NCBI GenBank assembly: GCA_003230545.1
Contig: QIFB01000010.1
Span: forward strand, 1 to 42,001
DNA: 42,001 bases
From: Gammaproteobacteria bacterium
Lineage (GTDB): Bacteria; Pseudomonadota; Gammaproteobacteria; UBA9214
Direction of reading: 5' to 3'
A program made the translations under genes and the position numbers. Positions 7,349 through 36,304 of this stretch are shown piece after piece; the stretch's first letter is position 1, and each line of letters starts with the position of its first letter. A model generated the notes under the pieces. That model was not told where the DNA came from and made no database searches. It worked only from the letters and a program-made list of their open reading frames with translations.

Positions 7349-7351
7349 CAT

Positions 7352-13145: not shown

Positions 13146-13288
13146 ATACAGCAAGCGGCTAATGCAGCTTGCCAATGACGGCAACAGGTCTTATAACATC
13201 GGTAAGGGAAATGGAAAGGGAGTGCCTGCTACCGGCTGGCGTATTGCCAGACTGTCGGATAAAAAAACTGCAACGGGGTCATTTCACC

Positions 13289-13576: not shown

Positions 13577-13731
13577 GCCGCCTGCCTCCCGGCACCGGCA
13601 GCACCCATAACCACCTGATTTGCCACAGGGATCCCGTACGCCCGCAGAATATTTCAATGCGGCAGCCCGGCTGCCGATACCCTGATTGATTCCCGGACAC
13701 CGCGGGACAGCGCAGCGACAGGAGACAACCC

Positions 13732-13929
13732 ATGACCATCGTTTACGATATGGCAGCAGGCAGTATCCGGTCCGACGCACAGGATGAGGGTCGGAACGAA
13801 ACCCCGCAGGACCAGCGCCCGGAACTTATCCCGGACACTCCCGCACCTGCGCTCCGGGAATATGAGGCGAGCGAACCATCAGCGACGAACAACATTCACC
13901 TGGTACGCGAGCTGCTGAAACAGGGCTGA
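13732..13929 (+). CDS. Small hypothetical protein (65 aa)
   Basis: AGGAG RBS; fills the gap before the convergent ABC permease. Confidence 0.55.
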   Translation: MTIVYDMAAGSIRSDAQDEGRNETPQDQRPELIPDTPAPALREYEASEPSATNNIHLVRELLKQG

Positions 13930-13935
13930 CGGACC

Positions 13936-16518: not shown

Positions 16519-19500
16519 TCAGTCGGTACGCACCACCCGAAAGCCGAGATTATCCAGGCGGGTGTCGTGGTCATACTGGCCACGCCTGGTACTGCGTATG
16601 CTGTCGATCGGGCTGGTATAGGCACCACCACGGATCACGCGCTGGGTGCAGCGGCGCGCCTTCCGGGCACTGCCGTCCGTTGCCGCAGCCTGGTAGTTGG
16701 CGTGGTAACAGTCCTCGACCCATTCCTGTGCGTTGCCGGCAGTGTCGTGCAGCCCGAAACCGTTGGGGCTGAAGCTGCCGACCGTGGTAGTGCGCTTGCC
16801 GTCCCACTGGTTACCGCAGTCAAAGCAGTTGGCCGGGACTTCGGCTACCTCCTCATCCCACCAGTAGGGCTGTGTCGTACCGCCGCGTGCGGCAAACTCC
16901 CATTGTGCTTCGGTTGGCAGCCGGTAGTCATGGCTGGTTTGTTTCGACAGCCAGGTTGCATAGGCCGTTGCATCTTTCCAGGATACGTTGATGACCGGCT
17001 GATCCTGGCGTCCCCAACCTTCATCGTAGGGCAGCCGGCGGCCGGTTGCGCGAGCGAACCGGTCATACTCGGCAAAGGTGACTTCGGTTTTACTGATCGA
17101 GAAGCCTTGCAGGTCAACCTGGTGCTGTGGCCGTTCGTCGAAATTCATGGAATTCGGCGCACTGCCCATAATAAACGCGGCATCCGGCAGTTCCACCATC
17201 GACGGACCGTTGCCACCACCCTTCAGCGCATCCCGGTATGCACGCACCGGTGCAACAGGCGGCAATGCGACCGGTTCGGGCGGTGCACTGTCGTCAACCC
17301 GGGCCTGGTCCTGACCGGGGCTGGCGACTGTGACCGGTTTTGCGGCCGGCTTGCCGGCTGTGACTGGCGGTCGGGATACTGCTGGCGGAGTGCCGGTAGC
17401 CGGCGCCGGTGCAGCCTCTCCGTCCGTGTCAGTCACAACCCCGGGTTCGTCAGTAGCCAGACTCAACGGGTTCCCGGGCTGCAGCAGCAACCAGGCTACC
17501 AGCGTAGCGATGGCAACCACGCCGAGGCCGATGACCTTGCCCAGCCAGCCATGGCTGTCCTTACCGGTTACTTCAATCCCCGGGCGGACCTCCGGGACCG
17601 GCGCCGGATCAGTTGCGGTAAACGTGGCAGCGGTGGCCGGTGGCGCCGGCTTATCTGCCGGGGGTTCTTCATCCAGTGACGGAATTTCCAGCGGCGCAGC
17701 CACAGCGCCATCCTGACCGTGTCCGGCACGCAGCGTCTCCATCTGCTGCAGTGCCTTGTCGCGCTGCGCCTCGGCCTCGGTGCGCAGGCGTACTGCAATT
17801 TCGATATTCCTGCGGAACTCTTTCAGCTCGGCGCGCAATTTTTCCGGGTCTTCCAGCTGGCCTTCCTCATCCGTGTTCATCAGGCCACGCGCCACCTCAA
17901 CCTCGACCCGCAGTGTATTCAGCTGCTCACGCGTAGCCTGCTGTTCATCCAGTGCGGTATCGCGCTCCCCGGTCAGCAGCTTCAACTGGGTCTCCAGCTG
18001 CTCAATGGCCGTGTCAGCTTCTGATTTCTGCTCCCGAATCAGTTCCAGGTCTGTCAGGCTGCGCTCCCGCTCCTGCCGGACCGCCTCCGCGGTCTCTGCG
18101 TGCGCCTTGTTCAGGTCATTCTGCAATGCCGTCAGCTGTTCCTCTGCCGGGTCGTTACCGGCCAGTTCCTGTTCCTGCAGCTGCTTCAGACGCGAACGTT
18201 CTTCTTCGCGGACATCATCCCGGGCACGTTCGAGCGCGCCTTCCCGGGATGAAAGTACCTCCTCATGCTTGCTGGCAATGGCAGCGAGCTGTTCCTTCAG
18301 CTGTTTCTGGCGCGCTGCAAGCTCGGCCCGCTCCTGTGCCCGGTCACGCCGCTCGGCCTGCAGCTCTTCCCGGAAATGCCCGGCGCCGGTACGCGCATCA
18401 TCCCGTGCCGCCTGCAGATCATTGGTCGACTGCTCCAGCTTCTTGCGCAACCGCTCGAGCTGGCCCTGTAGCTCCTTTTCTAACTCATTCTTCCGGTTCA
18501 GATCCTCATAGGCCTTGCTCAGTGCATCCTGGTTATCGAGGTCATGTGTTCTTGAACGCTCTTCCGCAGCCTGCAACTCCTTCCCGAATTCACTGCGCTC
18601 TTTTTCCAGCCCGGAAACCTGCTGTTGCAGTTCCTGCTTTTCTCCGTTCTCCTGATCGATTACCTGTTGTAACGACTCGATTATTCCGGCCTGTTCACCG
18701 GACTGCCGCTGCAGCTCCCCGGAATTCTTTTGTGCGGCTTCAAGCTGCTCACCAAGCAACCCGACCTCATCGTCTGCAGCACCCGTTAACGCGGCAATAC
18801 GCTCATTCAGCTTGCCCAGTTCCTGTCCCTGCGCAGTGTTCTGCTGCTGTGACTCATCGAGTTGCTTCCTGAAACTGTCACACTCGGCTGTCGCTGTCTG
18901 CAACTGTTCCGCGCGCACCGAGTTTTCCTGCTTGAGCTCCAGGTAACGCAGCTCCTGCTGCTCCAGTTTCTCGTTGTTTTTCCTGGTGTGGGTTTGCTGC
19001 TGCTTTTCGAATTTTGCCTTGTCCTTATCAGCCTGATCCCGCAATTTCTGCGTCTGCGTTTCAAGTTTCTCAAGCTGCTTCTGCCGGTCCTGAATCTCTT
19101 TCTGCAGTGTTTTCTGCCCACTGCTTGACTCATCCTGCAGCCGTTCCAGCGCGGTTTCCGATGCCTGCGCGGCTGCACCTGCATTTTCGAGTGCTTCCTG
19201 AAGTTTCTGCTGCTGCACCTCAAGCTGGCGGTTTTCGGCGCACAGTGTTTCCTGCTGCTGCCCGGCTTCCTGCAAACTGGCACTGAGAGTTTCGTGCCCG
19301 GAAGATGTCGAGTTCAGTTGTTGTTGCAGCGCCTCGACCTTCCTGTCAGCATCGGCAAGCCGGTCAGACACGGCCGTATTTTCCCGGTGTGACAGCTCCA
19401 GCTCACCACGCAGGGTATCCATCTCACTGTTATGCTGCTTTATGCCGGAGGCTGCCTGTCCGGCAACCGTCTCCTGCTCTTCCCGGGCAGCCGCGATACC

Positions 19501-21306
19501 GGTTTCCAGTCCGGTAATCTGCCCTCTGGCCTGTTGCAGTTCCTGCTGCAGCCCTTCCACTACCTTGTTATGGTCGGTCGCCGAGTCATCCGCACGCTTG
19601 ACTGCCAGTTGTTGCTCAGTGTGCGCCGAGTTAATCGAAGCCTCGAGCATCCCGGCCTGCTGCCGCGACTGCTCCAGCTCGGTTCGCAACTGATCCGCAA
19701 GCTGCTGCTGTCCCGCATACTGCCCCTGCAGTTGTGCGCGTTCCTCGCTGGCCTCGCTGGATTCGGTCTGCAGCCTCGACAGCATGTCACCGGACTCCGT
19801 GAGCTGTTTCTCCAGCTGCGTTACCCGCTCCGTGTATTCATCCTGCAGGGCAGCGTATTGCTCGCGGACCAGCCGGGTCTCGTCTGCGCCGGACTGTTGT
19901 GTATGTTGCAGGCCGGCGAGCTGGTCCTGTGCCTCGCGCAGTGCATTCTCCAGCCGCTCGACATCCGCCTGGCTGTCTACCAGGCCACGTACGGTGTTCT
20001 CATGGTCACTGGCTGCCTGCCGGAGCCCGGTGTTTTCCCGACGCAAGGCCGTGATTTCCTCGAGCTGTTCCGCAGCCGGGTTTATTTCCTGCACAGCATT
20101 AGCGGCCACCGCTGCGGCAGGCGCTGCGGCCGGGCTGGCTGTGGCTTCCGGCTCATCCGCAGCCAGGTCACTACTATCCGCACCTGGCTGGCCGAATTCG
20201 ACCGAGACCACGGCCCCGCCCTCGCTGGCCACCGGTGGTGTATCCCTTGTCTGTTCAGCCGCCGGACTCAGACCATTCATCCCGCCATCGAGCACATATA
20301 CCTCATATCCCTTGTGGCTGAGGATAAAGGCAGCCGAGGAACTGCGGCGCCCGGTATCACAGCAAATAATGTATTTCACGTTAAAAACCAGTTCGGGGAG
20401 CTCACCGCGCAGGTCTGACAGGGGAATATTGACGCTGTCTTCAAAGGCACCGGCCTCGTACTCGCCTGGCGAGCGCACGTCGATCCAGACTGCACCGTCA
20501 TCGACCATTGCGGATGCCGTCTCAAAATCGAGGTTACTGATCAGGTGTTTCTGCAACAGCTCGACAAAGTCCTTTTTGGCGAGGCGCATCAGCACACCGT
20601 CTGTCAGCATGGTCACCGTGGCATTGCGCCGGGCATCCGAGACCAGCGCCTCTTCACCGAAACAGTCGCCATCCGACAGCTCGGCCAGCTTCAGGATTTC
20701 GCCGTCAGGGGCGTCCTTGCGGGTGACCGCACACTGGCCCTGGTGGATGGTATAGAAATAGTCTCCCTCGTCCCCCTGGTTGATTACCGCCTTGCCGGCA
20801 CGTACGGGGACGGATTCCATCTTCATCAGCAGACGCTGGATAATGGCCGGCGGAATCTTGATGAAGACCTCCGACTGGAGAATCCGCGTCATCCAGTCCT
20901 CGTTGCCGTCAGCCCGGATTTCAGTTGCCTCGGTGGACGTTGTCTGGTCCCAGGTCAGGAACACGTCCAGCAACCCGGAATCGATCCGTGCGATCACGAC
21001 CTTGGTTACGGCACGGGCCGTCAGGGGTCGCGGTTGCTGGTTTGCAATCGGGTAACGGCTGACGTCGGTACCGGCTTCCACTTCACTGGTAACCTTGCGG
21101 TGGCCATCAATCAGGTTGATTTTTCCGTCCAGCAGGTAAAATGACTCGTTATTGCGGTCACCCTTGCGGAACAGGTAGCGTCCCTTGCGGACCTCCTCGA
21201 TGACGATTTTCCTGGCGACCTCCGCAAAACGGCTCTCCGACAACGCATTCAGCGGAACCAGGTCCTGGAGGTATTTTTTATTATCCGGTTTTGTCGCTGC
21301 GCCCAT
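16519..21306 (-). CDS. Multidomain membrane protein: 2x cNMP-binding, rhodanese, coiled coil, TM helix, FGE/SUMF1-fold domain
   Basis: FGEEALV...RNATV (cNMP); IDVRS..EY and CCDTGRRS (rhodanese); long Q/E/L heptad region; VIGLGVVAIATLVAWLLL (TM); RLPTEAQWEFAARGG, PNGFGLHD.AGN..EW and GFRVV (FGE fold). Confidence 0.9.
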   Translation of the reverse strand: MGAATKPDNKKYLQDLVPLNALSESRFAEVARKIVIEEVRKGRYLFRKGDRNNESFYLLDGKINLIDGHRKVTSEVEAGTDVSRYPIANQQPRPLTARAVTKVVIARIDSGLLDVFLTWDQTTSTEATEIRADGNEDWMTRILQSEVFIKIPPAIIQRLLMKMESVPVRAGKAVINQGDEGDYFYTIHQGQCAVTRKDAPDGEILKLAELSDGDCFGEEALVSDARRNATVTMLTDGVLMRLAKKDFVELLQKHLISNLDFETASAMVDDGAVWIDVRSPGEYEAGAFEDSVNIPLSDLRGELPELVFNVKYIICCDTGRRSSSAAFILSHKGYEVYVLDGGMNGLSPAAEQTRDTPPVASEGGAVVSVEFGQPGADSSDLAADEPEATASPAAAPAAAVAANAVQEINPAAEQLEEITALRRENTGLRQAASDHENTVRGLVDSQADVERLENALREAQDQLAGLQHTQQSGADETRLVREQYAALQDEYTERVTQLEKQLTESGDMLSRLQTESSEASEERAQLQGQYAGQQQLADQLRTELEQSRQQAGMLEASINSAHTEQQLAVKRADDSATDHNKVVEGLQQELQQARGQITGLETGIAAAREEQETVAGQAASGIKQHNSEMDTLRGELELSHRENTAVSDRLADADRKVEALQQQLNSTSSGHETLSASLQEAGQQQETLCAENRQLEVQQQKLQEALENAGAAAQASETALERLQDESSSGQKTLQKEIQDRQKQLEKLETQTQKLRDQADKDKAKFEKQQQTHTRKNNEKLEQQELRYLELKQENSVRAEQLQTATAECDSFRKQLDESQQQNTAQGQELGKLNERIAALTGAADDEVGLLGEQLEAAQKNSGELQRQSGEQAGIIESLQQVIDQENGEKQELQQQVSGLEKERSEFGKELQAAEERSRTHDLDNQDALSKAYEDLNRKNELEKELQGQLERLRKKLEQSTNDLQAARDDARTGAGHFREELQAERRDRAQERAELAARQKQLKEQLAAIASKHEEVLSSREGALERARDDVREEERSRLKQLQEQELAGNDPAEEQLTALQNDLNKAHAETAEAVRQERERSLTDLELIREQKSEADTAIEQLETQLKLLTGERDTALDEQQATREQLNTLRVEVEVARGLMNTDEEGQLEDPEKLRAELKEFRRNIEIAVRLRTEAEAQRDKALQQMETLRAGHGQDGAVAAPLEIPSLDEEPPADKPAPPATAATFTATDPAPVPEVRPGIEVTGKDSHGWLGKVIGLGVVAIATLVAWLLLQPGNPLSLATDEPGVVTDTDGEAAPAPATGTPPAVSRPPVTAGKPAAKPVTVASPGQDQARVDDSAPPEPVALPPVAPVRAYRDALKGGGNGPSMVELPDAAFIMGSAPNSMNFDERPQHQVDLQGFSISKTEVTFAEYDRFARATGRRLPYDEGWGRQDQPVINVSWKDATAYATWLSKQTSHDYRLPTEAQWEFAARGGTTQPYWWDEEVAEVPANCFDCGNQWDGKRTTTVGSFSPNGFGLHDTAGNAQEWVEDCYHANYQAAATDGSARKARRCTQRVIRGGAYTSPIDSIRSTRRGQYDHDTRLDNLGFRVVRTD

Positions 21307-26580: not shown

Positions 26581-26763
26581 ATGAAGAATTCACTTGCAGA
26601 ACCCCAGCAACCGGCAAAAGCAAAACCGCAAAAGAGCCTGAGCATGCATGACGGCACTGCCGTGTGGTGCGATTGCTGCTCGTGCGAGATGGAGCCCTAC
26701 TGGGCCGCGGTCGCGGAAGAAATGGGAATTGACGTCTATAACGACTACGAGGACGGCGAATAA
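26581..26763 (+). CDS. Small Cys-cluster hypothetical protein (60 aa)
   Basis: WCDCCSCEMEPYW motif and acidic tail; upstream TTACCG-17-TATATA (26458-26486). Confidence 0.45.
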   Translation: MKNSLAEPQQPAKAKPQKSLSMHDGTAVWCDCCSCEMEPYWAAVAEEMGIDVYNDYEDGE

Positions 26764-27656
26764 CCAAAGTCCGGCCGCATGGTTTCCGTTACCAGCGCAT
26801 CAATCTGCGCCAGCTGCGTGTCGTCAAAGTAGTCGCGGTAGCCACCCACCTTGGCGCGCCGGACCTTGTAGGTATTCGGATCGCCCTTCTTGCCCGGCAC
26901 CAGACGTGCGCCACTGGCGCGGAACGCGTTCTTTTCCTCGAGCTTCTTCATGTTTTCGTAGGCGGCAAATTCCACGGCATCATGGATCTCGGCAGTGGTT
27001 CCGGGGGTATCCATAAAACCGAACAGCCGCTCCAGCGCCGTTACCGGGTCGCGGCGCATATCCTCGTAGCGCAGCACCAGACTGGCCTCGACTTTTGGCA
27101 GTTCCTGTGCCCAGATGTTGAAGAAGCGGATTATGCACGGCAGGCCGGCATCCTCGTTCATGATGAAGTCGAACAGGGGAATGTCGCTGTTATGTGGCGG
27201 GTACCAGTTGAGCTCCTTCTTGCGGCGTTTCATCCGGTACTTCCACTGGAAGAACTGGGAGACTGCCACGTCGCGCGGATCGCGGACCAGCATAATGACC
27301 TTTTTACCGTAGAACTCGGCCTTGTCATCCCAGTTGCCGGTGTAGTTGCGGAGATAATTACTGTGAGTAAAAAACACGCGCGGTACCGCGGGATTGATGC
27401 GATGATAGTTGTCAAAACCCAGCATGTATTTTTCCGGAATGCCTAATTTCTGCTGGTAGTAGCGCGACATCATCACCCGCAGCCAGGTTCGTCCGCTCTT
27501 GCCCCACGACATCAGTACGTAGTCCGTTTGCTGCAGCTTGCGGTTTTCCTCGCGGCCGCGCAGCCAGCGGTCGACCCTGATGCGCCGCTGTCTCGGCAGA
27601 ACGAGACACGGCAGCAGGATCAACTCCCGCGTAATGGCAGGCCAGACATCGTGCAT
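26745..27656 (-). CDS. Sulfotransferase domain protein (ST1)
   Basis: SWGKSGRTWL (5'-PSB loop), RDPRDVAVS (3'-PB), LRYEDM and KVRRAKVGGY. Confidence 0.9.
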   Translation of the reverse strand: MHDVWPAITRELILLPCLVLPRQRRIRVDRWLRGREENRKLQQTDYVLMSWGKSGRTWLRVMMSRYYQQKLGIPEKYMLGFDNYHRINPAVPRVFFTHSNYLRNYTGNWDDKAEFYGKKVIMLVRDPRDVAVSQFFQWKYRMKRRKKELNWYPPHNSDIPLFDFIMNEDAGLPCIIRFFNIWAQELPKVEASLVLRYEDMRRDPVTALERLFGFMDTPGTTAEIHDAVEFAAYENMKKLEEKNAFRASGARLVPGKKGDPNTYKVRRAKVGGYRDYFDDTQLAQIDALVTETMRPDFGYSPSS

Positions 27657-27882
27657 ATGGTGGTTACGGTTTTCCTGGTCAATTTGCCCGACAGGGCGGC
27701 GTAGTGTAAACCAAACACCGGGGGTTTTTCCCGATAGCCGGGCCCGCGAACCAGCGGGTTCGGAGTGTAATTGACCAGCGGGTAAGCTGCTGATTCCTGG
27801 ATGCCCGGCGCATCTGCTACACTCGGCCTGGAAAGCACAGTTAATTCAGATACCTGAATTCAACCCCAGGTATGATCCAGCC

Positions 27883-28512
27883 ATGACATACGTCGATCTA
27901 ACCGCCATCGAAGCCACCCCTCTGACAGCGGATCCGTATGATTATATGGTGGTGCCGGACTGTATCAGCGCAACCGGACTGGTAGCGGCCAACCGTGATT
28001 ACCCTGATATCGACACCCCGGGGAACAAGGATCTGGAAGAACTGCAGTACGGCCCGGGCTTCCAGGGCCTGATCGATGAACTCGAGAGCCCCGAATTACG
28101 GCAGGCCATCAGCGACAAGTTCAACGTCGACCTCGATGATGCCTGGACCACAATCACGGTACGCAAATTCTGTGAGCCCAGCGATGGCAACATCCATACC
28201 GACCACTGGAGCAAGGTGATCACGGTGCTGGTCTACTTCAATACCGACTGGGACAACAATACCGGGCAATTACGCCTGCTGCGCTCACCCGATGATATCG
28301 AGGACTACGCGGCCGAGGTCCCGCCGGCCGGCGGGACCCTGCTGGCCTTCCGGCGCACCGACATCTCGTGGCATGGCCACAAGCGCTTCGTCGGCGAACG
28401 CCGCATGTTGCAGCTGAATTTCGTGAAAACCGGGCGCACCGCCCGTTATACCCAGCAATTTGCCCGGTTCTCGACGCGCATGATGAAACGCGTCGCCAGA
28501 CTCGTTCAATAA
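27883..28512 (+). CDS. 2OG-Fe(II) oxygenase
   Basis: HTD...SWHGH facial triad and RRMLQLN 2-oxoglutarate-binding Arg. Confidence 0.88.
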   Translation: MTYVDLTAIEATPLTADPYDYMVVPDCISATGLVAANRDYPDIDTPGNKDLEELQYGPGFQGLIDELESPELRQAISDKFNVDLDDAWTTITVRKFCEPSDGNIHTDHWSKVITVLVYFNTDWDNNTGQLRLLRSPDDIEDYAAEVPPAGGTLLAFRRTDISWHGHKRFVGERRMLQLNFVKTGRTARYTQQFARFSTRMMKRVARLVQ

Positions 28513-28560
28513 GATACCGGGGCCGTGACGCCCCGCCATCCGAAACCCAGGACACAGACC

Positions 28561-29499
28561 ATGCTCCAGGTAGTACACGCCGGCAGACAGCTGTTTCGCT
28601 CGATATGGAAAAAGCTCTCGCGCCGATTGTTGCGCGCGGCTCTGCTGTTCGCGTCCGAAGACCGTAAAACGGCGGCGGAACGCTGGCTTCGGGGGCGTGA
28701 ACAGAACCGGAAACTGCAGCAGTCAGATATCGTCATCGTTTCCTTCGGCAAGAGCGGGCGCACCTGGCTGCGGGTCATGCTGTCGCGCCTCTACCAGGTC
28801 AAGCATGGCCTGTCGCAACGCTACCTGATGGGGTTCGACAATTTTCACTACATGAACCGCGCCATCCCGAAGGTATTTTATACCCACGACAACTACATCA
28901 AGGACTACACCGGCAACGCGGACTCCAAGGTAGATTTCTATGACCGCAAGGTGGTACTGCTGGCGCGCGACCCGCGCGATGTCGCGGTGTCCCAGTACTT
29001 CCAGTGGCAGTACCGCATGAAGCCCAACAAGAAAATTCTCAACAAGTACCCCGGTGAAGGTAAAGAGGTTCCGATCTACGACTTCGTCATGGACAAGGAT
29101 GCCGGACTGCCCAAGGTGATCGAATTCATGAACCTGTGGACTCGTGAAAGCCCGCGCCTGAAAGGCTTTTTCCTGCTGCGTTACGAGGACCTGCGCACAG
29201 CGCCGGAAGCCACGCTGGAAAGGCTGCTGGAATTCATGGGGACGCCGGGAACACCGGAGGAAATCCACGATGCGGTTGAGTTCTCGTCCTATGAGAACAT
29301 GAAAATAATGGAGCAGAAAAAGACCTTCTGGCTCAGCGGTGGACGCATGGTGCCGAAGGACCGCGACAATCCGAATACCTACAAGGTCCGGCGCGCCAAA
29401 GTCGGTGGCTACCGCGACTACTTCGACGAGGCACAGGTCGCGCAAATCGAGACGCTGGTCAATGACACCCTGTCACCAGAGTTTGGTTACAACACATAA
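28561..29499 (+). CDS. Sulfotransferase domain protein (ST2), close paralog of ST1
   Basis: SFGKSGRTWL, RDPRDVAVS, LRYEDL and KVRRAKVGGYRDYF. Alternative start GTG 28525. Confidence 0.9.
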   Translation: MLQVVHAGRQLFRSIWKKLSRRLLRAALLFASEDRKTAAERWLRGREQNRKLQQSDIVIVSFGKSGRTWLRVMLSRLYQVKHGLSQRYLMGFDNFHYMNRAIPKVFYTHDNYIKDYTGNADSKVDFYDRKVVLLARDPRDVAVSQYFQWQYRMKPNKKILNKYPGEGKEVPIYDFVMDKDAGLPKVIEFMNLWTRESPRLKGFFLLRYEDLRTAPEATLERLLEFMGTPGTPEEIHDAVEFSSYENMKIMEQKKTFWLSGGRMVPKDRDNPNTYKVRRAKVGGYRDYFDEAQVAQIETLVNDTLSPEFGYNT

Positions 29500-29632
29500 A
29501 CGGGGTCAGGTAAGGTGCAATAGCGAAGCGTATTGCACCGCAGATATTGACCATACGGCGCAATGCATTTCATTTATTGCGCCCTACTCAACTACCCGAG
29601 AAAGAGGAAAATCTGCTCTGACCCGTCCTTTT
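29498..29632. repeat. REPIN-like element nested in GGGGTCAG/CTGACCC inverted repeat
   Basis: GTAAGGTGCAATAGCGAAGCGTATTGCACC and GGCGCAAT...ATTGCGCCCTAC (29510-29587), flanked by ACGGGGTCAG and CTCTGACCCGT. Confidence 0.65.
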
Positions 29633-29645
29633 AAAGGACTTCATC

Positions 29646-30872
29646 ATGTCATATTCAAAATTCGATCCAGGAATTGCAGCAACACTCGTAATCACGCTGC
29701 TCCTGTACGCGTGTGATGGCGGATCTTCTGGCGGAGGAAAGAATCGCCCAGCGCAACCTCCTCCCGGCAACCCGACCATCGCCCTCGCGTCTGTATTCCC
29801 GGGCGTATCATTCATTGGCCTGCTTGGGTTATTGCAGGCACCGGGAGATTCCAGCCGCTGGTTCGCCGTCGAGCAACGTGGAATGGTGTGGGTATTCGAT
29901 AATGACCCGAACGTTGCGACAGCCACACTCTTTATAGACATCACTGCACGTGTGGATTCCGGGTCGAACGAGGCAGGCCTGCTGGGAATGGCCTTTCATC
30001 CCGACTGGGGAACAAACGGCAACTTTGAAGTATTCCTCTCGTATACACGCACCGGCGCACCACTTGAATCGTATGTCTCGCGTTTCTACAGCCTGGATAA
30101 TGGCGCCACGCTCGATAACAGTGTGGAAGATGTGATCATGACTGTGCTGCAGCCATCCGGTAATCACAACGGTGGCAATATCGAATTTGGTCCCGACGGC
30201 TATTTGTATGGTGGCTGGGGAGACGGTGGCGGGGCTGGCGACCCGCAGGACAATGCTCAAAACACATGGAACCTTCTCGGTTCGTTTACCCGTGTGGATG
30301 TTGACGGTGGCACACCGTATGCCATTCCGGCCAATAACCCGTTTGCAGCAAATGGAGTCTGCACGCAAGGTGTCGGCGGCGCGCCCTGCCCCGAGATTCT
30401 TGCCTGGGGATTACGCAATCCGTGGCGCTGGAGTTTTGACAACTCGACGGGTGATCTTTGGGCCGGTGATGTGGGCCAGGGAGCAATCGAAGAGGTTGAT
30501 GTAATCGAACCTGGCAATAACTACGGCTGGCGCTGTCGTGAAGGATCAACCGTATTCGATAACTCTGGTAACTGCCCGGCGGGGCTGATCGACCCGATAA
30601 CGGAATACGATCATGGTGTTGGCCGGTCAATTACTGGCGGTTACGTTTATCGGGGTTCGGCTATTCCGGATCTGCGCGGTTTCTACGTTTTCGGCGATTT
30701 CATCTCGGGCAGAATCTGGTCACTGCCGGCAACCAGCGGCACCGGAAGTGCGGCAGATGAGTTACTGGACACAAGCTTGTTAATATCCTCATTTGCGGTA
30801 GACAATGACAATGAACTCTACGTACTCGATTTCGCGGCCGGCAATATTTACAAGATCATTGGCGCGCCATAA
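29646..30872 (+). CDS. PQQ-dependent sugar dehydrogenase family (GSDH/YliI-like) lipoprotein
   Basis: Lipobox-like LLYAC, EAGLLGMAFHPD, NHNGG.I.FGPDGYLY, GLRNPWR.SFD and GDVGQ...EE. Confidence 0.88.
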   Translation: MSYSKFDPGIAATLVITLLLYACDGGSSGGGKNRPAQPPPGNPTIALASVFPGVSFIGLLGLLQAPGDSSRWFAVEQRGMVWVFDNDPNVATATLFIDITARVDSGSNEAGLLGMAFHPDWGTNGNFEVFLSYTRTGAPLESYVSRFYSLDNGATLDNSVEDVIMTVLQPSGNHNGGNIEFGPDGYLYGGWGDGGGAGDPQDNAQNTWNLLGSFTRVDVDGGTPYAIPANNPFAANGVCTQGVGGAPCPEILAWGLRNPWRWSFDNSTGDLWAGDVGQGAIEEVDVIEPGNNYGWRCREGSTVFDNSGNCPAGLIDPITEYDHGVGRSITGGYVYRGSAIPDLRGFYVFGDFISGRIWSLPATSGTGSAADELLDTSLLISSFAVDNDNELYVLDFAAGNIYKIIGAP

Positions 30873-30893
30873 AATGTGTTCTGACACCGATGT

Positions 30894-31796
30894 TCAGGCC
30901 GCCTGCTTCGAGATGCGCCCGATGACCTCGAATGCATCGTGGCGCACGTGGTTCTTCGCCATTTCATCACGCACCAGGTCCTCGCCAAACACGCCCTTCT
31001 CAAGACACTCGGCGACCAGCTGGAAAAAGAACCGTTCCTGGTTCGGGTCCGGGTTCTGTTTGTACTTGCCGGTGAATTTATAGTCCCCGAACAGCGCGCG
31101 GCGGGCGCGGCGAATCCAGTGACGCGGCGGAAACAGACGGAAGGTATCGGCCGGACGGTAATCTACCGGCAAGCCGGTTTTCCACGGCTGGGTCTTGCGC
31201 TTTGTGGTATGCAGCATCTTCGTCTGCGACGTCAGGTGGTCGAAGTCATTCCATTCGGGCTCGAAGAAGCCGATGCTGCCGGGATCCTCGTACTTGAGAC
31301 AGACCCATTTCATGTAGTCACGCTGGAACTCGAACATCGCGTCAAACTGCTCCTCGACCTTCCAGTGTGTGAGTTTTGCATTTTCAAGCAGCATCACGCT
31401 GGTGGCCAGGCAACCGCGCTTGCCCTTGTTGCCGGACTTGGGGCGGCACATGATGGCCTTGCCCTGCATGTCACGTGACAGCAGGTCCCAGATATCGGCA
31501 ATGGCAAACACGTCCGGATCGATGACCACGGAACGGCCTTTGTAGTCCATCAATTGGGGTGGCAAGAACCGCGTCGGCGTGAAGGATTGCAGGTCATCGC
31601 GCACCCATTCACGCTTGTCACCGTCGCGAAGATAATAATCACCCTCGCGCGCCTTCAGGAACGGAAAGTCATCATAGGGCATGATGCGGATATCAAAACG
31701 GTCGTTGTGCTGCGAGTTACGCCGCAAGGCATATTCGGCCACCAGCGCACCCAGCCACTGCTTGTCATTGGCCTGGATAAATACACAATGGTCCAT
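30894..31796 (-). CDS. Hypothetical protein, GT-A/GT8-like glycosyltransferase candidate
   Basis: SFTPTRF, VIDPDVF (DxD), TSVMLL, EWNDFD and LHTT...QPWK. Start at MDHCVF. Confidence 0.65.
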   Translation of the reverse strand: MDHCVFIQANDKQWLGALVAEYALRRNSQHNDRFDIRIMPYDDFPFLKAREGDYYLRDGDKREWVRDDLQSFTPTRFLPPQLMDYKGRSVVIDPDVFAIADIWDLLSRDMQGKAIMCRPKSGNKGKRGCLATSVMLLENAKLTHWKVEEQFDAMFEFQRDYMKWVCLKYEDPGSIGFFEPEWNDFDHLTSQTKMLHTTKRKTQPWKTGLPVDYRPADTFRLFPPRHWIRRARRALFGDYKFTGKYKQNPDPNQERFFFQLVAECLEKGVFGEDLVRDEMAKNHVRHDAFEVIGRISKQAA

Positions 31797-32008
31797 AGGA
31801 AACCCCTGGTAACCCCTGGTAAGCAGTGGCCCGGGCTGTCGTCGGGCCGGCAATTTCGATGAGGGAAAAATTATATCATGACAAACGCCGCCGCTTTTAT
31901 TGATCCGGCGCACACGTCACCGCCAGGTTTTGGGATTTGACCCGGGATGCCGCACAATAGGCGCATGCTCGGATATTTCCAACGACCCGGCCGGCTGACA
32001 CCCTGACC

Positions 32009-32942
32009 ATGGCCAGACTGTTCCTCGGCAGTTCCCTGAAGAAGCTCACAGACCGTGCTCCGGCGGTGCGCCAGCTGCTGTGGGCCATTGAGGCCCTGCT
32101 GATCGCCATCCCGCTGGGCCTCGCCTGGCTGCTGCCACCGGGCATGGCCTCCAGTGCCGGCGCACGGCTGTTCCGCCTGATCGGCCCGCACCTCGACAAG
32201 ACCCGTAAATTCCGGCGCAACCTGACGCTCGCCTTCCCGCAACGGTCAGCCGCTGAAATCGAGGCCCTGATCCGGGACAACTGGGGCAATGTCGGGGCAA
32301 CGCTGGCGGAGTTTCCCCACCTCCCCGCGATCGCCCATGGCACGGCTCGAGATCGTCAATCACTGCAGCAGCGAGGTGTTCCGCAAGGATGGAAAATCCG
32401 CCATCTTCGTCGCTGCCCACCTGTCCAACTGGGAGGTCCCGGCCGTCGTCGTGGTGCAGCTTGGCATCCCCGTCAGTGGCATCTACACCCCGCTGCAAAA
32501 CCCGTGGCTGAACCGGATGTTGCTCAAGGCGCGTGCTGCCATCGGTTGCGGACTGATACCGCGCGAGGGTGGCCTCCGGATCCTGATACAGGAACTCGGC
32601 AAGGGCCGCTCGATTGGCCTGCTGGTGGATCAGCGCGTCGATGCCGGGGAACCGGTGCCGTTTTTCGGGCACGACATGCTGACCTCGACCACCCCGGCAA
32701 CGCTGGCGCTGCGCTATGACTATGACCTGATCCCGATACGGGTGGAACGCACCGCCCCGGCGCGTTTCCGGGTCACCCTCTACCCACCGGTCACGGTGCC
32801 GGAGAGGGCCACGGACAAACACCAGCGGTCCGTACAAATGACATATGAAATCAACAAGTTATTTGAAGAATGGATCAGGGCGCAGCCACATGAATGGTTG
32901 TGCACCAAGCGCCGCTGGGCCAAAGACGCCACCCCCGGCTGA
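32009..32942 (+). pseudogene. LpxL/HtrB-family (lipid A late) acyltransferase, frameshifted near 32340
   Basis: N-half in the 32009 frame (RNL.LAFP, WGNVG.TLAEF); C-half in the 32289 frame (AHLSNWE, LLVDQ, VPFFG, P.EWL.TKRRW). Confidence 0.85.
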
Positions 32943-33013
32943 TTCTCCGCGGCACTGTCCGTCGCAGCTCTTTATAATGCAGCGCTCTTCTTGCCGAACG
33001 CGATACCGCTACC

Positions 33014-34036
33014 ATGCAGGCCACTCTGAAAAACCGGATTCCGAATTCGACGGATAAACCGCTGCCACGCTGTATCGCCGAGATCGAGGGCATCGGCTAC
33101 CAGGACAGCGACCTGCCGGAGGCGCCGGTGGATTTCCCGGCCGGCTATTTTATTGTGGGCGCACCACGCTGCGGCACTACGGCCGTCAGCAAGGCGCTGT
33201 CACGCAATCCGCGCATCAGCTTTTCCAAACCCAAGGAGCCGCACTTCTTTCTCGAGCCCCGGCCCGGCTTGAGTCCGGATGAACTGCACCGGCAATACCT
33301 GTCACGCTACCACCGGGAACTCAACCCGGAGCACCAGGCATACGGTGACGGCTCGGTTTCCTACCTCTACGAGCCGGAGGCCATTCGGCGGGTGTTGCAA
33401 TTCGACCCGCGCGCGCAATTTATCGTGCTGGTGCGGAACCCGGTAGAGATGATGCGCTCGTATCACAGCCGCATGCTGTTTCAGCTGGACGAGGATGAAG
33501 TGGACTTTGCCCGCGCCTGGGAGCTGCAGGAAAGCCGCGCCGCCGGTCACAACCTGCCGCGGCGCTGCCGCGAGCCGATGCTGCTGCAGTACGCGTTCCT
33601 CGGCCAGCTCGGCATGCACCTCGAGCGCCTGTTCGAGGTGGCCGGCCGCGAACGCTGCCACGTCATCGTCCACGACGACTTCCGCGATGACCCGCGCGCG
33701 GTCTACCTGCGTGCACTGGAATTCATGGGAGTGGATGACGACGGCCAGGTCAAGTTCAAGCGTACCCGCGCCACCAGCAGCTTCAAATCGCCCTGGCTGC
33801 AGCAGTTCGTGATGAACCCGCCACCATGGACATTCCGGCTGATCGCAATCAGTAATTCCCGCATGTTGAAGCGGCTCAAGGGGGTGCGCAAGCGCATCAA
33901 GACCTGGAATTCCAGTGATGCCAAACCACGCCAGATATTCACCGATGAGGTGCGCGCCATGTTGCGGGATTATTTTGCGGACGATGTCGAGAAGCTGTCC
34001 GGATTACTGGCACGTGACCTGGGCGATTGGAAATGA
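33014..34036 (+). CDS. Sulfotransferase (ST3), separate subfamily
   Basis: FIVGAPRCGTT, KEPHFF, GDGSVSYL and RNPVE..RSY. Confidence 0.9.
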   Translation: MQATLKNRIPNSTDKPLPRCIAEIEGIGYQDSDLPEAPVDFPAGYFIVGAPRCGTTAVSKALSRNPRISFSKPKEPHFFLEPRPGLSPDELHRQYLSRYHRELNPEHQAYGDGSVSYLYEPEAIRRVLQFDPRAQFIVLVRNPVEMMRSYHSRMLFQLDEDEVDFARAWELQESRAAGHNLPRRCREPMLLQYAFLGQLGMHLERLFEVAGRERCHVIVHDDFRDDPRAVYLRALEFMGVDDDGQVKFKRTRATSSFKSPWLQQFVMNPPPWTFRLIAISNSRMLKRLKGVRKRIKTWNSSDAKPRQIFTDEVRAMLRDYFADDVEKLSGLLARDLGDWK

Positions 34037-34095
34037 GGTTATGACTCAATCCAGTAATGAGTCACAATTTATGGTAATACGCACATCGAGAGCCG

Positions 34096-35058
34096 ATGAT
34101 GCCGGTACGTGACAGTGTAAAAAAAATAGCCATCCTGGTGCCCACGGCACTGTTGCCGCGGCCGTGGCGGGTTGCCGCGCGCCGGAAGCTGCTGTCGAAC
34201 CTCGAGCTGGCCATCGCCAACCGTGCCGGCCTGCTGATCATCGGTCACCCCAAGAGTGGCAATACCTGGCTCAAGGTGATGCTGGCACGGCTCTACCAGG
34301 TACGCCACGGGCTGGAGGCCTCCGCCCTGATCGGATCCGATGAACTCGCGCTGCGCAACCCGGCAATCCCCAGGCTCGCTGCCACCAACGCCTGGTACAG
34401 CTATGAGGGTAGTGTCGGCAAGGTACTGGCATCGGGTGCAGCCGATGCTCCGTTGCGCCACAAGCCGGTCTTGCTGCTGGCACGCAATCCCATCGACATT
34501 GCCGTGTCGTGGTTTTTCCAGTTCACCAAACGCCAGTCGGCTCACAAACAGGAGTTGATCAACGACTTCATCGATCACCCGATCGACCGCCACACGGTCA
34601 CCCTGTGGGACTTCGTGCGTTACAGTGATATCGGGCTGCCGTTTCTGATCAACTACCTGAACACCTGGGAGCACAACCTCCGGCAGCTCGATCACTCCCT
34701 GCTGTTACGTTATGAAGACCTGCGCGCGGATCCGGCGGCAACCCTGAAGCAGGTGACCCGCCTGATGGGCGAGGACTTCAGCGCTGCGGAAATTACCGAA
34801 GCCGTCGAGTTCGGCTCCTTTGACAACCTGCGCAAGCTGGAGACCAGCGGTTTCTTCCGGCGTGGCGGCATGCGCCTGCACAACGCGAAGGACCCGAACA
34901 CCTTCAAGACCCGACGCGGCAAGGTCGGCGGCTACCCGGACTATTTCGAACCGGATCAGGTCAGGGAACTCGAGGATCTGATGATGCAACACCTGACACC
35001 GACCTTCGGCTATCAGCCATCAGATGATCGCGGGCAGGACGTCCAGCCGTCCCCATGA
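34096..35058 (+). CDS. Sulfotransferase domain protein (ST4)
   Basis: HPKSGNTWL, RNPIDIAVS, LRYEDL and KTRRGKVGGY. Confidence 0.9.
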   Translation: MMPVRDSVKKIAILVPTALLPRPWRVAARRKLLSNLELAIANRAGLLIIGHPKSGNTWLKVMLARLYQVRHGLEASALIGSDELALRNPAIPRLAATNAWYSYEGSVGKVLASGAADAPLRHKPVLLLARNPIDIAVSWFFQFTKRQSAHKQELINDFIDHPIDRHTVTLWDFVRYSDIGLPFLINYLNTWEHNLRQLDHSLLLRYEDLRADPAATLKQVTRLMGEDFSAAEITEAVEFGSFDNLRKLETSGFFRRGGMRLHNAKDPNTFKTRRGKVGGYPDYFEPDQVRELEDLMMQHLTPTFGYQPSDDRGQDVQPSP

Positions 35059-36230
35059 ACACCGCTGACAACCAGTCTGCCCCCCGGACGTGGGTGGTGC
35101 TGGGTGACAAGCAGGGTGACAACGCCCAGGTCGAGGCGATCGTGCAGGCCCTGCCATGGCCCTGTGAACAGCGCCATATCCAGGTACTCGACAAGTTCGT
35201 TTTCGGCAAACCGAAAGTCGGCCCCACGCTGTATCACATCGACCGGGAACGCTCGGACCCGCTTGAACCCCCGTGGCCTGACCTCATCCTAACCATCGGG
35301 CGGCGCCCGGCCAACGTGGCGCTGTGGATCCGTGAACAGTCCGGCGGGCACACCAGAATTATCATTGTCGGCAAACCGTCCAGCATGCCGGACGACTACG
35401 ACCTGGTGATCTACAGTGCCGAGAACCAGTTTCCGCCACGCGCCAACCTGCAGGGCATTTCCCTGCCGCTGATGCGTATCGATGCGACCGCAGTGGAAGC
35501 GGCCGCACGCGAGTGGGCATCACGCCTTGCGGACCTGCCCCGGCCCCTGACCGCCTTCCTGGTCGGTGGACCGACCGGCCCGTTCATCTTTAACGACGCG
35601 GCCATCCGCCGCCTGCGGCAGACCATTGACCGGATCCTCGATGAAACCGGCGGCAGTATCTACATCACCACCAGCCGGCGCACGCCACCGGCAGTCGTTG
35701 ACGCCTTGCAAAACCGCTTGCCTGACGGTGCACGGCTGTTTGCCTGGCGCGCGGATGCGCGCGATAACCCGTATCGCGGCCTGCTCGGACTCGCCGACGG
35801 TTTCGTCGTCACCGGCGACAGTATTTCCATGATGGTGGAAGTGATCCGCCTGCGGAAACCGCTGGCGATCTTCCCGTTACCGGTTGGCAAGGTGGGCGCC
35901 GTTGACCAGCTGCGCCGCAGCTTCACGCGCCGGCTGTTCGCGCCGGCCAGCGGTGCAACACTGGACCGGCTGCGTACCGGCCTGTGCAAGCTGCTGTATG
36001 CCATGCGCATCGTGACCCATACACGGGATTTTACCGCCTTCAACGAAAGCCTGGTGCGGGGCGGGCTGGCCGGTTACGCGAGTGACCCGTTGCAACCGCC
36101 GAGCGGGGAGGTACCGGATGACCTGGCACTGGCCGTGCAGCGGATCATTGCCGTGGTGGACGGCAAACCGCAGGTTGGTGCCGAGCGTAGCCCGGATGAA
36201 GGCCGCAAGGCCGTAAGCCGGGAAACATGA
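35055..36230 (+). CDS. ELM1/GtrOC1 family putative glycosyltransferase
   Basis: WVVLGDK.GDN.Q, PPWPDL, LVGG, TTSRRTP, NPY.GLL and VVTGDSISM; ATGA overlap with ST4. Confidence 0.85.
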   Translation: MNTADNQSAPRTWVVLGDKQGDNAQVEAIVQALPWPCEQRHIQVLDKFVFGKPKVGPTLYHIDRERSDPLEPPWPDLILTIGRRPANVALWIREQSGGHTRIIIVGKPSSMPDDYDLVIYSAENQFPPRANLQGISLPLMRIDATAVEAAAREWASRLADLPRPLTAFLVGGPTGPFIFNDAAIRRLRQTIDRILDETGGSIYITTSRRTPPAVVDALQNRLPDGARLFAWRADARDNPYRGLLGLADGFVVTGDSISMMVEVIRLRKPLAIFPLPVGKVGAVDQLRRSFTRRLFAPASGATLDRLRTGLCKLLYAMRIVTHTRDFTAFNESLVRGGLAGYASDPLQPPSGEVPDDLALAVQRIIAVVDGKPQVGAERSPDEGRKAVSRET

Positions 36231-36271
36231 TTCGGAAAGTCCCGGATTCCGCTGCGCTTCATCCGGGCTAC
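36187..36271. repeat. REPIN (two inverted GTAGCCCGGAT REPs)
   Basis: GTAGCCCGGATGAAGG...CTTCATCCGGGCTAC; homologous to 37531-37626 in opposite orientation. Confidence 0.85.
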
Positions 36272-36304
36272 AGCACTATGAGGTATACAGAGGTATTCCG
36301 GAAA

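Follow-up and report, generated by a model that had tools for sequence, protein, structure and literature searches.

Gene content and layout of the locus

The window (the whole stretch of 42,001 nucleotides that was analysed) was found to contain, within positions 26745-36230, all eight genes named in a preliminary description of this DNA, namely four PAPS-type sulfotransferases (ST1 to ST4), a 2OG-Fe(II) oxygenase, a GT8-like glycosyltransferase, an LpxL-family acyltransferase and an ELM1-family protein. The four sulfotransferases were intact-looking, scored above the Pfam cut-offs and kept the PAPS-loop motifs. The genome as a whole was found to contain ten PF00685 matches in 1.92 Mb, or about 0.05 expected per 9.5 kb, so that four clustered genes are far beyond chance. 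The coordinates bore out the proposed operon layout of the LpxL-family, ST3, ST4 and ELM1 genes, with gaps of 71 and 59 nt followed by an overlap of 4 nt. A hydropathy scan found no signal peptide or membrane span in any of the eight enzymes, which is consistent with cytoplasmic donors. Among the window ORFs scanned, no PAPS-synthesis gene was found, as described earlier, and no LPS export, ligase or Kdo-synthesis genes were found either. The island was flanked by GspA/GspB-like genes and ribonucleotide reductase.

A ninth gene, absent from the earlier list, was found at 29646-30872 on the plus strand and encodes a PQQ-type glucose/sorbosone dehydrogenase lipoprotein (PF07995, 116.6 bits), the N-terminus of which is hydrophobic and closes in a lipobox-like LYAC. 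It had no tblastn match in 8 syntenic loci, 5 further loci or the 78 loci described below, and is an apparent lineage-specific insertion outside the conserved module, found only in this genome.

Sulfotransferases

ST1 (26745-27656, minus strand, 303 aa; PF00685, 74.4 bits) is cytosolic SULT-like and was found to contain GKSGRTW and RDPRDVAVS, which we take to be PAPS-type sulfotransferase motifs; its orthologues, with 74-75% identity, occupy the same position in three genomes of another genus (g3). The ST1 paralogue ST2 (28525-29499, plus strand, 324 aa; PF00685, 91.7 bits) starts 12 nt past the oxygenase gene. Among solved structures it is closest to hydroxysteroid and bile-salt sulfotransferases (E 4e-12), with flavonol and phenol sulfotransferases also among its best relatives. 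ST4 (34096-35058, plus strand, 320 aa; PF00685, 78.4 bits), the conserved partner of ELM1, contained a PKSGNTW motif. ST3 (33014-34036, plus strand, 340 aa; PF13469, 43.1 bits; PF00685, 34.1 bits) contained a PRCGTT motif; the solved structure most like it is 3rnl (E 1.2e-22), and heparan sulfate N-sulfotransferase comes next (E 1.7e-4). The two subfamilies that had been distinguished are real: ST1, ST2 and ST4 matched one another at about 36-57% identity in tblastn whereas ST3 matched none of them and has other nearest relatives of known structure. The nearest solved structures of ST1, ST2 and ST4 are small-molecule sulfotransferases, which counts against an LPS substrate.

Acyltransferase

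The LpxL-family acyltransferase paralogue (32009-32942, plus strand; PF03279) was found with its frame broken at about 32342 in the window assembly; one half matches PF03279 from position 8 to 106 (39 bits) and the other, in a second frame, from 117 to 294 (119.7 bits). The gene has an 11-nt gap relative to genomes G001 and G002, where one ORF of 314 aa stays whole. Contigs from all four public runs contained 11 extra nt behind 32338-32342 and an open frame, which makes the break either a fault of the assembly or a rare variant. The protein shares with the late acyltransferases LpxL, LpxM and LpxP (PF03279; PRK06553, TIGR02207) the full-length PF03279 match, here in two frames, and an HLSNWE motif, presumably the catalytic H-x4-D/E dyad. 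However, it scored below every NCBIfam equivalog cut-off, the best model being PRK06553 (57.7 and 125.3 bits against a cut-off of 273). The complete genome G002 contains three paralogues, this one among them, and the best-scoring LpxL paralogue (237.6 bits) lies elsewhere, adjoining WaaA and GT9 genes. By these scores and gene positions the island acyltransferase is classed as an extra paralogue and not as the canonical LpxL. The best-scoring LpxL, WaaA and two GT9 genes together form a canonical inner-core locus of the genus, apart from the island, so that the basic core can do without the island, a point against the LPS reading.

Oxygenase and GT8-like glycosyltransferase

The 2OG-Fe(II) oxygenase (27883-28512, plus strand, 209 aa; PF13640, 33.9 bits) is prolyl-4-hydroxylase-like and contained H105-T-D107; its best solved relative is 9blq, a 'putative hydroxylase' (E 3.3e-12). 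No Pfam match to a Kdo-hydroxylase or LpxO family was found at E<=0.01. The sequence places the enzyme with the prolyl-hydroxylase type, outside the known Kdo and lipid A hydroxylase families, which counts against an LPS function.

The GT8-like GT-A glycosyltransferase (GT) of 300 aa was assigned to 30894-31796 on the minus strand, and not to the ORF at 30894-31913 on that strand, because its homologues have 300 aa and start at M40. The earlier GT8-like call was retained on fold and on a GlyE profile match (E 3e-4), and found no backing in Pfam, where nothing matched the protein and PF01501 was unmatched at E<=0.01; the family is without a Pfam model, and searches gave 5923 homologues and 813 representative clusters. 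The AF2 model had a pLDDT of 92.0, and the top Foldseek matches were GlyE, XXYLT1, LARGE1, LgtC and glycogenin, all of GT8 (E 8e-9 to 2e-7). The protein has in common with GT8 enzymes (the LOS galactosyltransferase LgtC, 1g9r; GlyE, 5gvv) the GT-A fold, a DxD motif (D93-P-D95, D95 being invariant) and a C-terminal H...QPW, but its TM-scores to them are 0.4-0.5 with 11-17% identity and it forms its own 813-cluster family.

ELM1-family protein and its probable Kdo link

The ELM1-family glycosyltransferase (35055-36230, plus strand, 391 aa; PF06258, 179.9 bits) is KdoT-like. Its AF2 model (pLDDT 92.7) was found to have a GT-B fold with structural matches to EarP, MurG and LpxB, and an SRRT motif at 207-210, in which S207, R209 and T210 were invariant in 47 sequences. 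KdoT of Acinetobacter baumannii (A1S_2903) is reported as an ELM1-like CMP-Kdo:Kdo2-lipid IVA KdoIII transferase with GnaT as its partner (PMC12856342, PMC10936431), for the function of which SRRT is stated to matter (PMC12856342), and Acinetobacter outer-core loci are reported to encode five ELM1-family proteins (PMC10327509). KdoT and the window protein are alike, by family, fold and motif, in the ELM1 label, the GT-B fold, SRRT, the lack of a membrane span and a core-gene setting. The window gene differs in that its operon also encodes sulfotransferases and an LpxL paralogue, whereas the available text of the KdoT paper contains no mention of sulfation (PMC12856342). The link to LPS thus became stronger than first noted, as an ELM1-like protein is described as a proven Kdo transferase (PMC12856342), its SRRT is present here, and ELM1 paralogues of related genomes adjoin LptF/G and WaaL-like genes.

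The genomes examined contained 3-5 ELM1 paralogues each, in at least two deep clades. The window ELM1 belongs to a subclade of 13 rows (support 93/93); of the 12 others, 11 had a sulfotransferase within 300 bp and 7 had an LpxL-like gene no more than 1.5 kb away. In the other main clade, 16 of 29 rows had LptF/G or WaaL-like genes no more than 6 kb away. An ST4-type gene (60-70% identity) was found between an LpxL-like gene and ELM1 on one strand in 13 loci. These 13 triads, an adjacency conserved over genera and classes, the sulfotransferases so close to ELM1 in its subclade and the 4-nt ST4-ELM1 overlap all argue against the sulfotransferases being unrelated small-molecule or detoxifying enzymes that lie beside envelope genes and share no product with them. 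That explanation would suit the steroid-, flavonol- and phenol-type relatives of ST2 and the abundance of PF00685 genes in this bacterial family, even in genomes lacking GT and ELM1 (11 matches in G007, 9 in G014), and is considered very improbable.

Conservation across genomes

Neighbourhood conservation, proposed earlier as a check, was confirmed: besides relatives, several other gammaproteobacterial families and a few alphaproteobacterial MAGs have the set. One carrier, Thiohalobacter thiocyanaticus Hrh1 (locus L040), is in culture. The order ST1, 2OG, ST2, GT, LpxL, ST3, ST4, ELM1 was kept in all three g3 loci of sufficient length; G005 holds the same gene set rearranged, and short contigs carry partial versions (eight loci examined). 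Of the loci around GT relatives, 56 span 10 kb or more; these contained sulfotransferases (40), ELM1 (39) and 2OG (36) genes, followed by LpxL-like (18), LptF/G (16) and WaaL-like (9) genes. Across 78 such loci, whose counts overstate independence because they are drawn from the best 80 of 570 matches and include kin, the direct neighbours were GT and sulfotransferase 44 times, GT and ELM1 26 times, and GT and 2OG 25 times. The ST3 type is lineage-restricted, with one of the 96 sulfotransferase genes in these 78 loci. Wzy_C O-antigen ligase, LptF/G and MsbA-like ABC exporter genes were found by Pfam to adjoin GT, ELM1 and sulfotransferase genes in six loci.

The single acylate-glycosylate-hydroxylate-sulfate line first suggested was not upheld. 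Its parts occur separately: GT and 2OG pairs lay amid unrelated housekeeping genes in all four loci examined, the G003 locus is without the acyltransferase, and G008 (85% complete) contained GT and ELM1 with no PF00685 match. The island is modular and not a fixed assembly line. It could even be a composite whose modules are independent and serve different acceptors, in which the LpxL-like enzyme, ST4 and ELM1 act on the lipid A-core and the GT8-like enzyme, the oxygenase and the ST1/ST2 type act on something else, such as a protein that is hydroxylated and then glycosylated and sulfated. Such a composite agrees with the 25 direct GT-2OG neighbourhoods, the four GT-2OG pairs (all without ELM1, sulfotransferase or LPS genes), the three GT and two 2OG genes on another contig (C129) of this genome, the prolyl-hydroxylase type of the PF13640 oxygenase family, and the protein-modifying GlyE, XXYLT1 and glycogenin among the GT8-fold matches. 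In eukaryotic Skp1, proline hydroxylation is followed by glycosylation that proceeds partly via a GT8-like enzyme. Yet 11 of the 31 related genomes had strong GT matches and exactly these had strong ELM1 matches, GT adjoins ELM1 and sulfotransferase genes as often as counted above, and no recurrent candidate acceptor protein was found adjoining in the loci scanned. The composite is judged unlikely.

PAPS supply

A check for cysDNC genes had also been proposed earlier. G002, G004 and G014 each encode an ATP-sulfurylase fused to an APS kinase (about 590 aa), which makes PAPS supply in the genus plausible; the genome studied here, which is 85% complete, gave no APS kinase match.

Proposed product and pathway

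The best reading of the island, with a probability of about 0.5, is that it encodes an accessory pathway by which the LPS core or lipid A would be sulfated. The observed basis consists of families, folds, motifs, gene intactness, conserved clustering, paralogous clusters in LPS loci and a PAPS synthase in the genus; we infer which acceptor and donor sugars are used, in what order the steps run and that the sulfate lands on LPS. Decoration would take place on the lipid A-inner core part of LPS, at the cytoplasmic face of the inner membrane. Using a CMP-activated donor, the ELM1-family GT-B enzyme would attach a Kdo-like ulosonic acid to Kdo-lipid A as the acceptor, a hexose-type sugar may be added by the GT8-like GT-A enzyme, and the extra LpxL paralogue may place a secondary acyl chain on the LPS variant. 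The four sulfotransferases would transfer sulfate from PAPS to core-sugar hydroxyls, with ST4 putatively serving alongside ELM1, and enzymes of the ST1/ST2 type alongside the GT8-like enzyme and the oxygenase; the oxygenase may hydroxylate a sugar or an acyl chain. The earlier suggestion that sulfate might stand in for phosphate in the envelope is treated as speculative.

Rhizobial LPS sulfation is represented by Sinorhizobium meliloti LpsS, a PAPS-dependent sulfotransferase that acts on LPS, to which the island was likened by description only. LpsS is a single enzyme whereas the island contains four sulfotransferases of two subfamilies, and to our knowledge LpsS is not clustered with ELM1, GT8-like or LpxL-like genes.

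The product might instead lie off lipid A, as a separate glycolipid that is acylated and bears several sulfates or as a capsule-like glycan that contains Kdo, with the LpxL-family enzyme acylating a sugar as does PatA of the same Pfam family. PF03279 spans phosphatidylinositol mannoside acyltransferase (PRK07920 scores 72.5 bits here), the acyltransferase is the third paralogue in the genus, the island lies apart from the canonical core locus, and highly sulfated acylated oligosaccharides with genetic origin unknown are reported from marine samples (PMC4052302). One of these, the marine sponge 'sulfated LPS' axinelloside A, is acylated, has 12 sugars and 19 sulfates (PMC4052302) and is the kind of product the island could make; it serves as a lead only, as it has no Kdo or lipid A in the description given by that review and has no genetic or taxonomic link with the island. 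Against such a product, no recurrent polymerase, flippase or dedicated exporter was found, the recurrent transport and ligation genes being LptF/G, WaaL-like and MsbA-like; the model that the acyltransferase fits best is that of a lipid A lauroyl transferase; and the sole ELM1-family enzyme characterised in the literature found is described as acting on Kdo2-lipid IVA. We regard it as rather improbable.

No report of a sulfated LPS core in these taxa was found in the literature searched. A sulfated LPS is expected because the conserved island pairs four sulfotransferases with enzymes of the kind that build the LPS core, and the carriers, which are marine sulfur-oxidising bacteria, probably make a form of sulfated LPS so far undescribed.

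Gene content and layout of the island

The source genome (1.92 Mb in 220 contigs, ~85% complete, with the window as its contig C2) was found to have named homologues pointing to the vicinity of Thiohalobacter and Thiogranum, two sulfur-oxidising genera of the Gammaproteobacteria. The ORF and Pfam scan of window 26745-36230 revealed nine genes. The sulfotransferase ST1 (26745-27656, minus strand) was followed by a 2OG-Fe(II) oxygenase (27883-28512, plus), the sulfotransferase ST2 (28525-29499, plus), a PQQ glucose/sorbosone dehydrogenase (29646-30872, plus) and a Pfam-less GT8-like protein of 300 aa (30894-31796, minus), whose start was placed by homologues. The remaining genes, all on the plus strand, were an LpxL-family acyltransferase (32009-32942), ST3 (33014-34036), ST4 (34096-35058) and an ELM1-family protein (35055-36230). 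The preliminary description had named eight of the nine and had overlooked the dehydrogenase; the operon that it had proposed for acyltransferase, ST3, ST4 and ELM1 was upheld, with spacers of 71 and 59 nt followed by a 4-nt overlap. The PF00685 matches in the whole source genome numbered 10, a total that gives an expectation of ~0.05, so four sulfotransferases per 9.5 kb were far beyond chance.

The dehydrogenase was found to be inserted between the convergent ST2 and GT8-like genes and was unique to the source genome among the loci compared. In the hydropathy scan it alone of the island proteins contained a membrane span or signal peptide, of lipoprotein-like type. As a lipoprotein absent from the related loci examined, it was ruled out both as the "GT-like" protein and as a member of the pathway.

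The scan for promoters and terminators was uninformative (7 promoter-like sites versus 4.0 +/- 2.0 in shuffled sequence; 15 terminator-like sites versus 9.0 +/- 3.1), and the sole feature found by the Rfam and tRNA scans was a tRNA-Gln at 1880-1953. A palindromic REP-like element was present directly after the ELM1 stop, at 36241-36272. Its summed contig depth was 353-2659 against ~5-135 alongside in four of four public runs, with many loose ends at 36239-36273, which marks it as a highly repeated element.

Sulfotransferases and PAPS supply

All four sulfotransferases scored above the curated Pfam cut-offs (22 bits for PF00685 and 27 bits for PF13469), with PF00685 scores of 74.4 bits for ST1, 91.7 bits for ST2 and 78.4 bits for ST4, and a PF13469 score of 43.1 bits for ST3. 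The translations contained the PAPS-loop motifs GKSGRTW (ST1 and ST2), PKSGNTW (ST4) and PRCGTT (ST3) and the 3′-phosphate motifs RDPRDVAVS, RNPIDIAVS and RNPVEMMRS; we take P/G-K/R-x-G-x-T to be the 5′-phosphosulfate-binding loop and R-x-P-x-D/E-x-x-x-S to be the 3′-phosphate motif. By profile and motif, ST1-ST4 are classed as PAPS-type sulfotransferases. Their assignment to two subfamilies was confirmed, with ST1, ST2 and ST4 as mutual paralogues and ST3 on a separate branch. The closest solved structures were cytosolic hydroxysteroid and phenol sulfotransferases for ST1, ST2 and ST4, and 3rnl and a heparan sulfate N-sulfotransferase for ST3.

No APS kinase was found in the source genome, where the matches were at P-loop level (19-21 bits), and this absence is weak evidence because the genome is only 85% complete. 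A fused ATP-sulfurylase/APS kinase of ~590 aa was present in the related genomes G002, G004 and G014 and a separate APS kinase in G010, and CysD (TIGR02039) was found in none of the five genomes searched.

Elsewhere in the window, a 668-aa protein (7962-9968, minus strand) was found to combine numerous TPR repeats with a sulfotransferase domain at its C-terminus (PF13469, 89.1 bits). Its gene lies within a tryptophan operon, with trpE (9994-11514) on one side and trpG/trpD/trpC (5346-7930) on the other. Sulfotransferase-bearing frames of 500-900 aa were common in the related genomes. A 1595-aa protein (16519-21306, minus strand) joined a pair of cyclic-nucleotide-binding domains to a rhodanese domain and, at the C-terminus, an FGE-sulfatase (formylglycine-generating enzyme-like) domain; ~1000 of its residues were without a Pfam match.

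LpxL-family acyltransferase

The PF03279 match of the acyltransferase was full-length and was spread across two frames in the window. An 11-nt gap was found in the alignment with the related genomes G001 and G002, in which the gene is a whole ORF of 314 aa. The contigs of four of four public runs, each from a different study and one of them the probable source sample, likewise carried 11 bases that are missing at ~32342, and they lacked the 10 bases present at 31801-31810 in the spacer between the GT8-like gene and the acyltransferase gene; the two local assembly differences are ~540 bp apart. Because all four runs carry the extra 11 bases, the frameshift is put down to faulty assembly or to a rare variant, and we treat the gene as an intact one. 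The idea of a pseudogene was rejected on the strength of these extra bases. In NCBIfam, the acyltransferase stood below every equivalog cut-off, with PRK06553 as its best match (57.7 + 125.3 bits, cut-off 273). It is one of three paralogues, and a better-scoring one was found elsewhere in the genus.

GT8-like protein and oxygenase

The GT8-like protein matched no Pfam family at E≤0.01, PF01501 included, and PF01501 was carried by only ~10% of the members in its nearest Atlas clusters. Beyond known family labels, the Atlas searches added nothing. The AF2 model (pLDDT 92.0) showed a GT-A fold with GlyE, XXYLT1, LARGE1, LgtC and glycogenin as top Foldseek matches, and a profile match to GlyE was obtained at E 3e-4. 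In the DxD motif, D95 was invariant and D93 was retained in at least 90% of sequences. The earlier GT8-like call thus stands at the level of fold, by model, structure matches and DxD motif, and fails for Pfam membership; the protein is "GT8-like" by fold only, because its structural matches are GT8 enzymes and PF01501 is absent. The family comprised 5923 detected homologues, or, by a separate count, 813 representative clusters. Within the gene, at 31352-31535, summed contig depth rose 5- to 20-fold in four of four runs, a pattern consistent with conservation of this segment across numerous paralogues or organisms.

The oxygenase returned PF13640 only in Pfam at E≤0.01 and is of prolyl-hydroxylase type. 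It had no match in Pfam or NCBIfam to the families of the known Kdo 3-hydroxylase KdoO or the lipid A hydroxylase LpxO, each of which has its own Pfam family. Its best NCBIfam match was a weak YhhC-type one (28.7 bits, cut-off 150).

ELM1 protein and its probable link to lipopolysaccharide

The ELM1 protein scored 179.9 bits for PF06258 (cut-off 27 bits), and its AF2 model (pLDDT 92.7) was found to contain a GT-B fold of two Rossmann-like halves, with the GT-B enzymes EarP, MurG and LpxB among its Foldseek matches. An SRRT motif was present at residues 207-210, and S207, R209 and T210 were invariant in the 47-sequence alignment. PMC10936431 and PMC12856342 show that KdoT (A1S_2903 of Acinetobacter baumannii, an ELM1-like Kdo transferase) moves a third Kdo from CMP-Kdo onto Kdo2-lipid IVA and contains a conserved C-terminal SRRT motif in which the second arginine matters for function; PMC10327509 describes five ELM1-family proteins encoded by Acinetobacter outer-core loci. 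The window protein resembles KdoT in family, GT-B fold and SRRT motif, and may be a KdoT-like transferase. Its donor and acceptor may differ from those of KdoT because several deep ELM1 clades occur in these genomes.

The ELM1 tree of 47 sequences (that of the window, two from contig C77 of the source genome and 44 out of 53 ORFs of full length, nine being omitted for size and redundancy and by no other criterion) was found to contain two deep clades. The window protein fell in a subclade of 13 rows, in which 11 of the 12 others had a sulfotransferase no more than 300 bp away and seven of the 12 an LpxL-like gene no more than 1.5 kb away. In the other deep clade, LptF/G or WaaL-like genes were present within 6 kb in 16 of 29 rows. 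Six related loci contained, by Pfam, an O-antigen ligase (Wzy_C), LptF/G and MsbA-like exporters beside GT, ELM1 and sulfotransferase genes, together with DAGK-type kinases, methyltransferases and a carbamoyltransferase. The tblastn counts for MsbA-like proteins were set aside, since the ATPase domain cross-matches any ABC transporter. With these neighbours of lipopolysaccharide type, we consider it unlikely that the product is a sulfated glycolipid, or a glycan with Kdo, that is separate from lipid A-core.

Conservation among relatives and wider spread

Co-occurrence in other genomes had been proposed as a test of the pathway, and the gene set of the island was found to recur in close and distant relatives. 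ELM1 orthologues of 65-88% identity were present in nine related genomes, from which eight loci were fetched. Three genomes of another, related genus (g3) contained the whole island in order with identical flanks and without the dehydrogenase: DsbD, RNR, TSCPD, ELM1, ST4, ST3, LpxL, GT, ST2, oxygenase, ST1, GspA and GspB. The complete set was rearranged in G005, and shorter contigs showed portions. The G003 locus contained GT, ST3, ST4 and ELM1 with no space for the acyltransferase, and the island site of the complete genome G002 contained GT, LpxL, ST3, ST4 and ELM1 only. Strong GT and strong ELM1 matches coincided in 11 of 31 related genomes, and several genomes without GT or ELM1 held many sulfotransferases.

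In G002, which belongs to the same genus as the source genome, RNR and TSCPD adjoin a second cluster (L017, C1:792000-811999) of two ELM1 genes, GT, oxygenase and two sulfotransferases. This cluster borders on genes for the carboxysome and RuBisCO, together with one SxtJ-like and one carbamoyltransferase gene. As RNR and TSCPD stand beside a different cluster there, the islands have been reshuffled within the genus. The source genome itself was found to contain a second island on contig C77 (L016, 10570-19929, extending to the contig end) with two ELM1 genes, a GT4, a Sulfotransfer_4 gene, four further sulfotransferases and a GT8-like gene split across two frames (13114-13731 and 13733-13981). 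On its contig C129 (1-4469), three GT8-like and two oxygenase genes fill 4.5 kb without a sulfotransferase or ELM1 gene.

With one genome per species, 570 GT relatives were confirmed, and the best 80 of these, forming 78 loci, were kept; they are the closest relatives, kin included, and are not independent samples. The taxa named among these best 80 of 570 included Thiogranum, Thiohalobacter, Sedimenticola, Porticoccaceae, Halieaceae, Competibacteraceae and three alphaproteobacterial MAGs. In those 56 of the loci that span 10 kb or more, tblastn detected a sulfotransferase in 40, ELM1 in 39, an oxygenase in 36, LpxL-like genes in 18, LptF/G in 16 and WaaL-like genes in nine, and at least one of sulfotransferase, ELM1 and oxygenase was present in 55. 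The triad of LpxL-like, ST4-type and ELM1 genes on a single strand was present at 13 loci among the best 80 of 570. Mere co-location of the island genes, set beside this recurrence, is regarded as very improbable.

The three alphaproteobacterial MAG loci (L048, L049 and L074; two labelled Roseovarius and one HGW-Alphaproteobacteria-1) were found to contain a GT 72-74% identical to that of the window and the gene order of L040, the locus of the gammaproteobacterium Thiohalobacter thiocyanaticus, and in the tree their ELM1 was sister to that of L040. The L040 locus, from strain Hrh1, comprises ELM1, an ST4-type gene, GT, a sulfotransferase, a WaaL-like gene and a second sulfotransferase. The likeness suggests cluster transfer between classes, or mis-binning.

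Interpretation and significance

The preliminary description had pictured an assembly line of acylation, glycosylation, hydroxylation and sulfation, and several results count against a single such line for LPS. The window flanks of the island were without LPS genes in the Pfam scan of ORFs, genome G008 contained GT and ELM1 with zero PF00685 matches, GT and oxygenase pairs occurred alone, and in G002 a canonical inner-core locus, where the best-scoring LpxL accompanies WaaA and two GT9 genes, was found away from the island. The low-scoring, paralogous acyltransferase of the island, its prolyl-hydroxylase-type oxygenase and the many sulfotransferases of genomes that lack GT or ELM1 count in the same direction. 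Given separable parts and a separate core locus, the island is best seen as modular, with a conserved LpxL-like/ST4/ELM1 operon (here with ST3), the GT8-like gene, and a unit of ST1 and oxygenase-ST2 as its modules. A composite island, in which GT, oxygenase and the ST1/ST2 unit serve a different acceptor, would agree with the GT and oxygenase pairs standing alone among unrelated genes in four of the four such loci examined and on contig C129; we consider such a composite rather improbable. The reading that we prefer, with a probability of roughly one half, is that the island would encode an accessory pathway at the cytoplasmic face, through which lipid A-inner core would gain two sugars (one Kdo-like, the other a hexose), an acyl chain and several sulfate esters.

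The charge of textbook LPS comes from phosphate and carboxylate groups, and it governs outer-membrane stability, cation binding, sensitivity to phage and antimicrobial peptides, and immune recognition. LPS sulfation is known from rhizobia. In the open-access papers and preprints covered, no description of a cluster of this composition, or of a sulfated LPS core for these taxa, was found. More speculatively, and with low expectation, the lipid A-core of Thiohalobacter/Thiogranum-type sulfur oxidisers and of other marine Gammaproteobacteria with such islands might take its negative charge largely from several sulfate esters on extra Kdo-like and hexose residues. It would then be a polysulfated endotoxin, made by a toolkit of KdoT-like, GT8-like and sulfotransferase enzymes, in which sulfate partly replaces core phosphates; multiplied in the genome (each with 3-5 ELM1 matches, as many as eight GT8-like ones and as many as 14 to sulfotransferases), the toolkit might lead to hypersulfated glycolipids of axinelloside type.

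From the conserved and widespread island, with its Kdo-transferase-like protein, LpxL paralogue and several sulfotransferases, we predict that the core is sulfated in sulfur oxidisers that abound in marine and sediment habitats, a prediction that is directly testable because a related cluster is present in a relative available in culture, Thiohalobacter thiocyanaticus Hrh1. If true, it would provide a first functional context for the Pfam-less GT8-like family with its 813 representative clusters, for the many bacterial ELM1 paralogues and for the large sulfotransferase numbers of these genomes, for which there is as yet no explanation.
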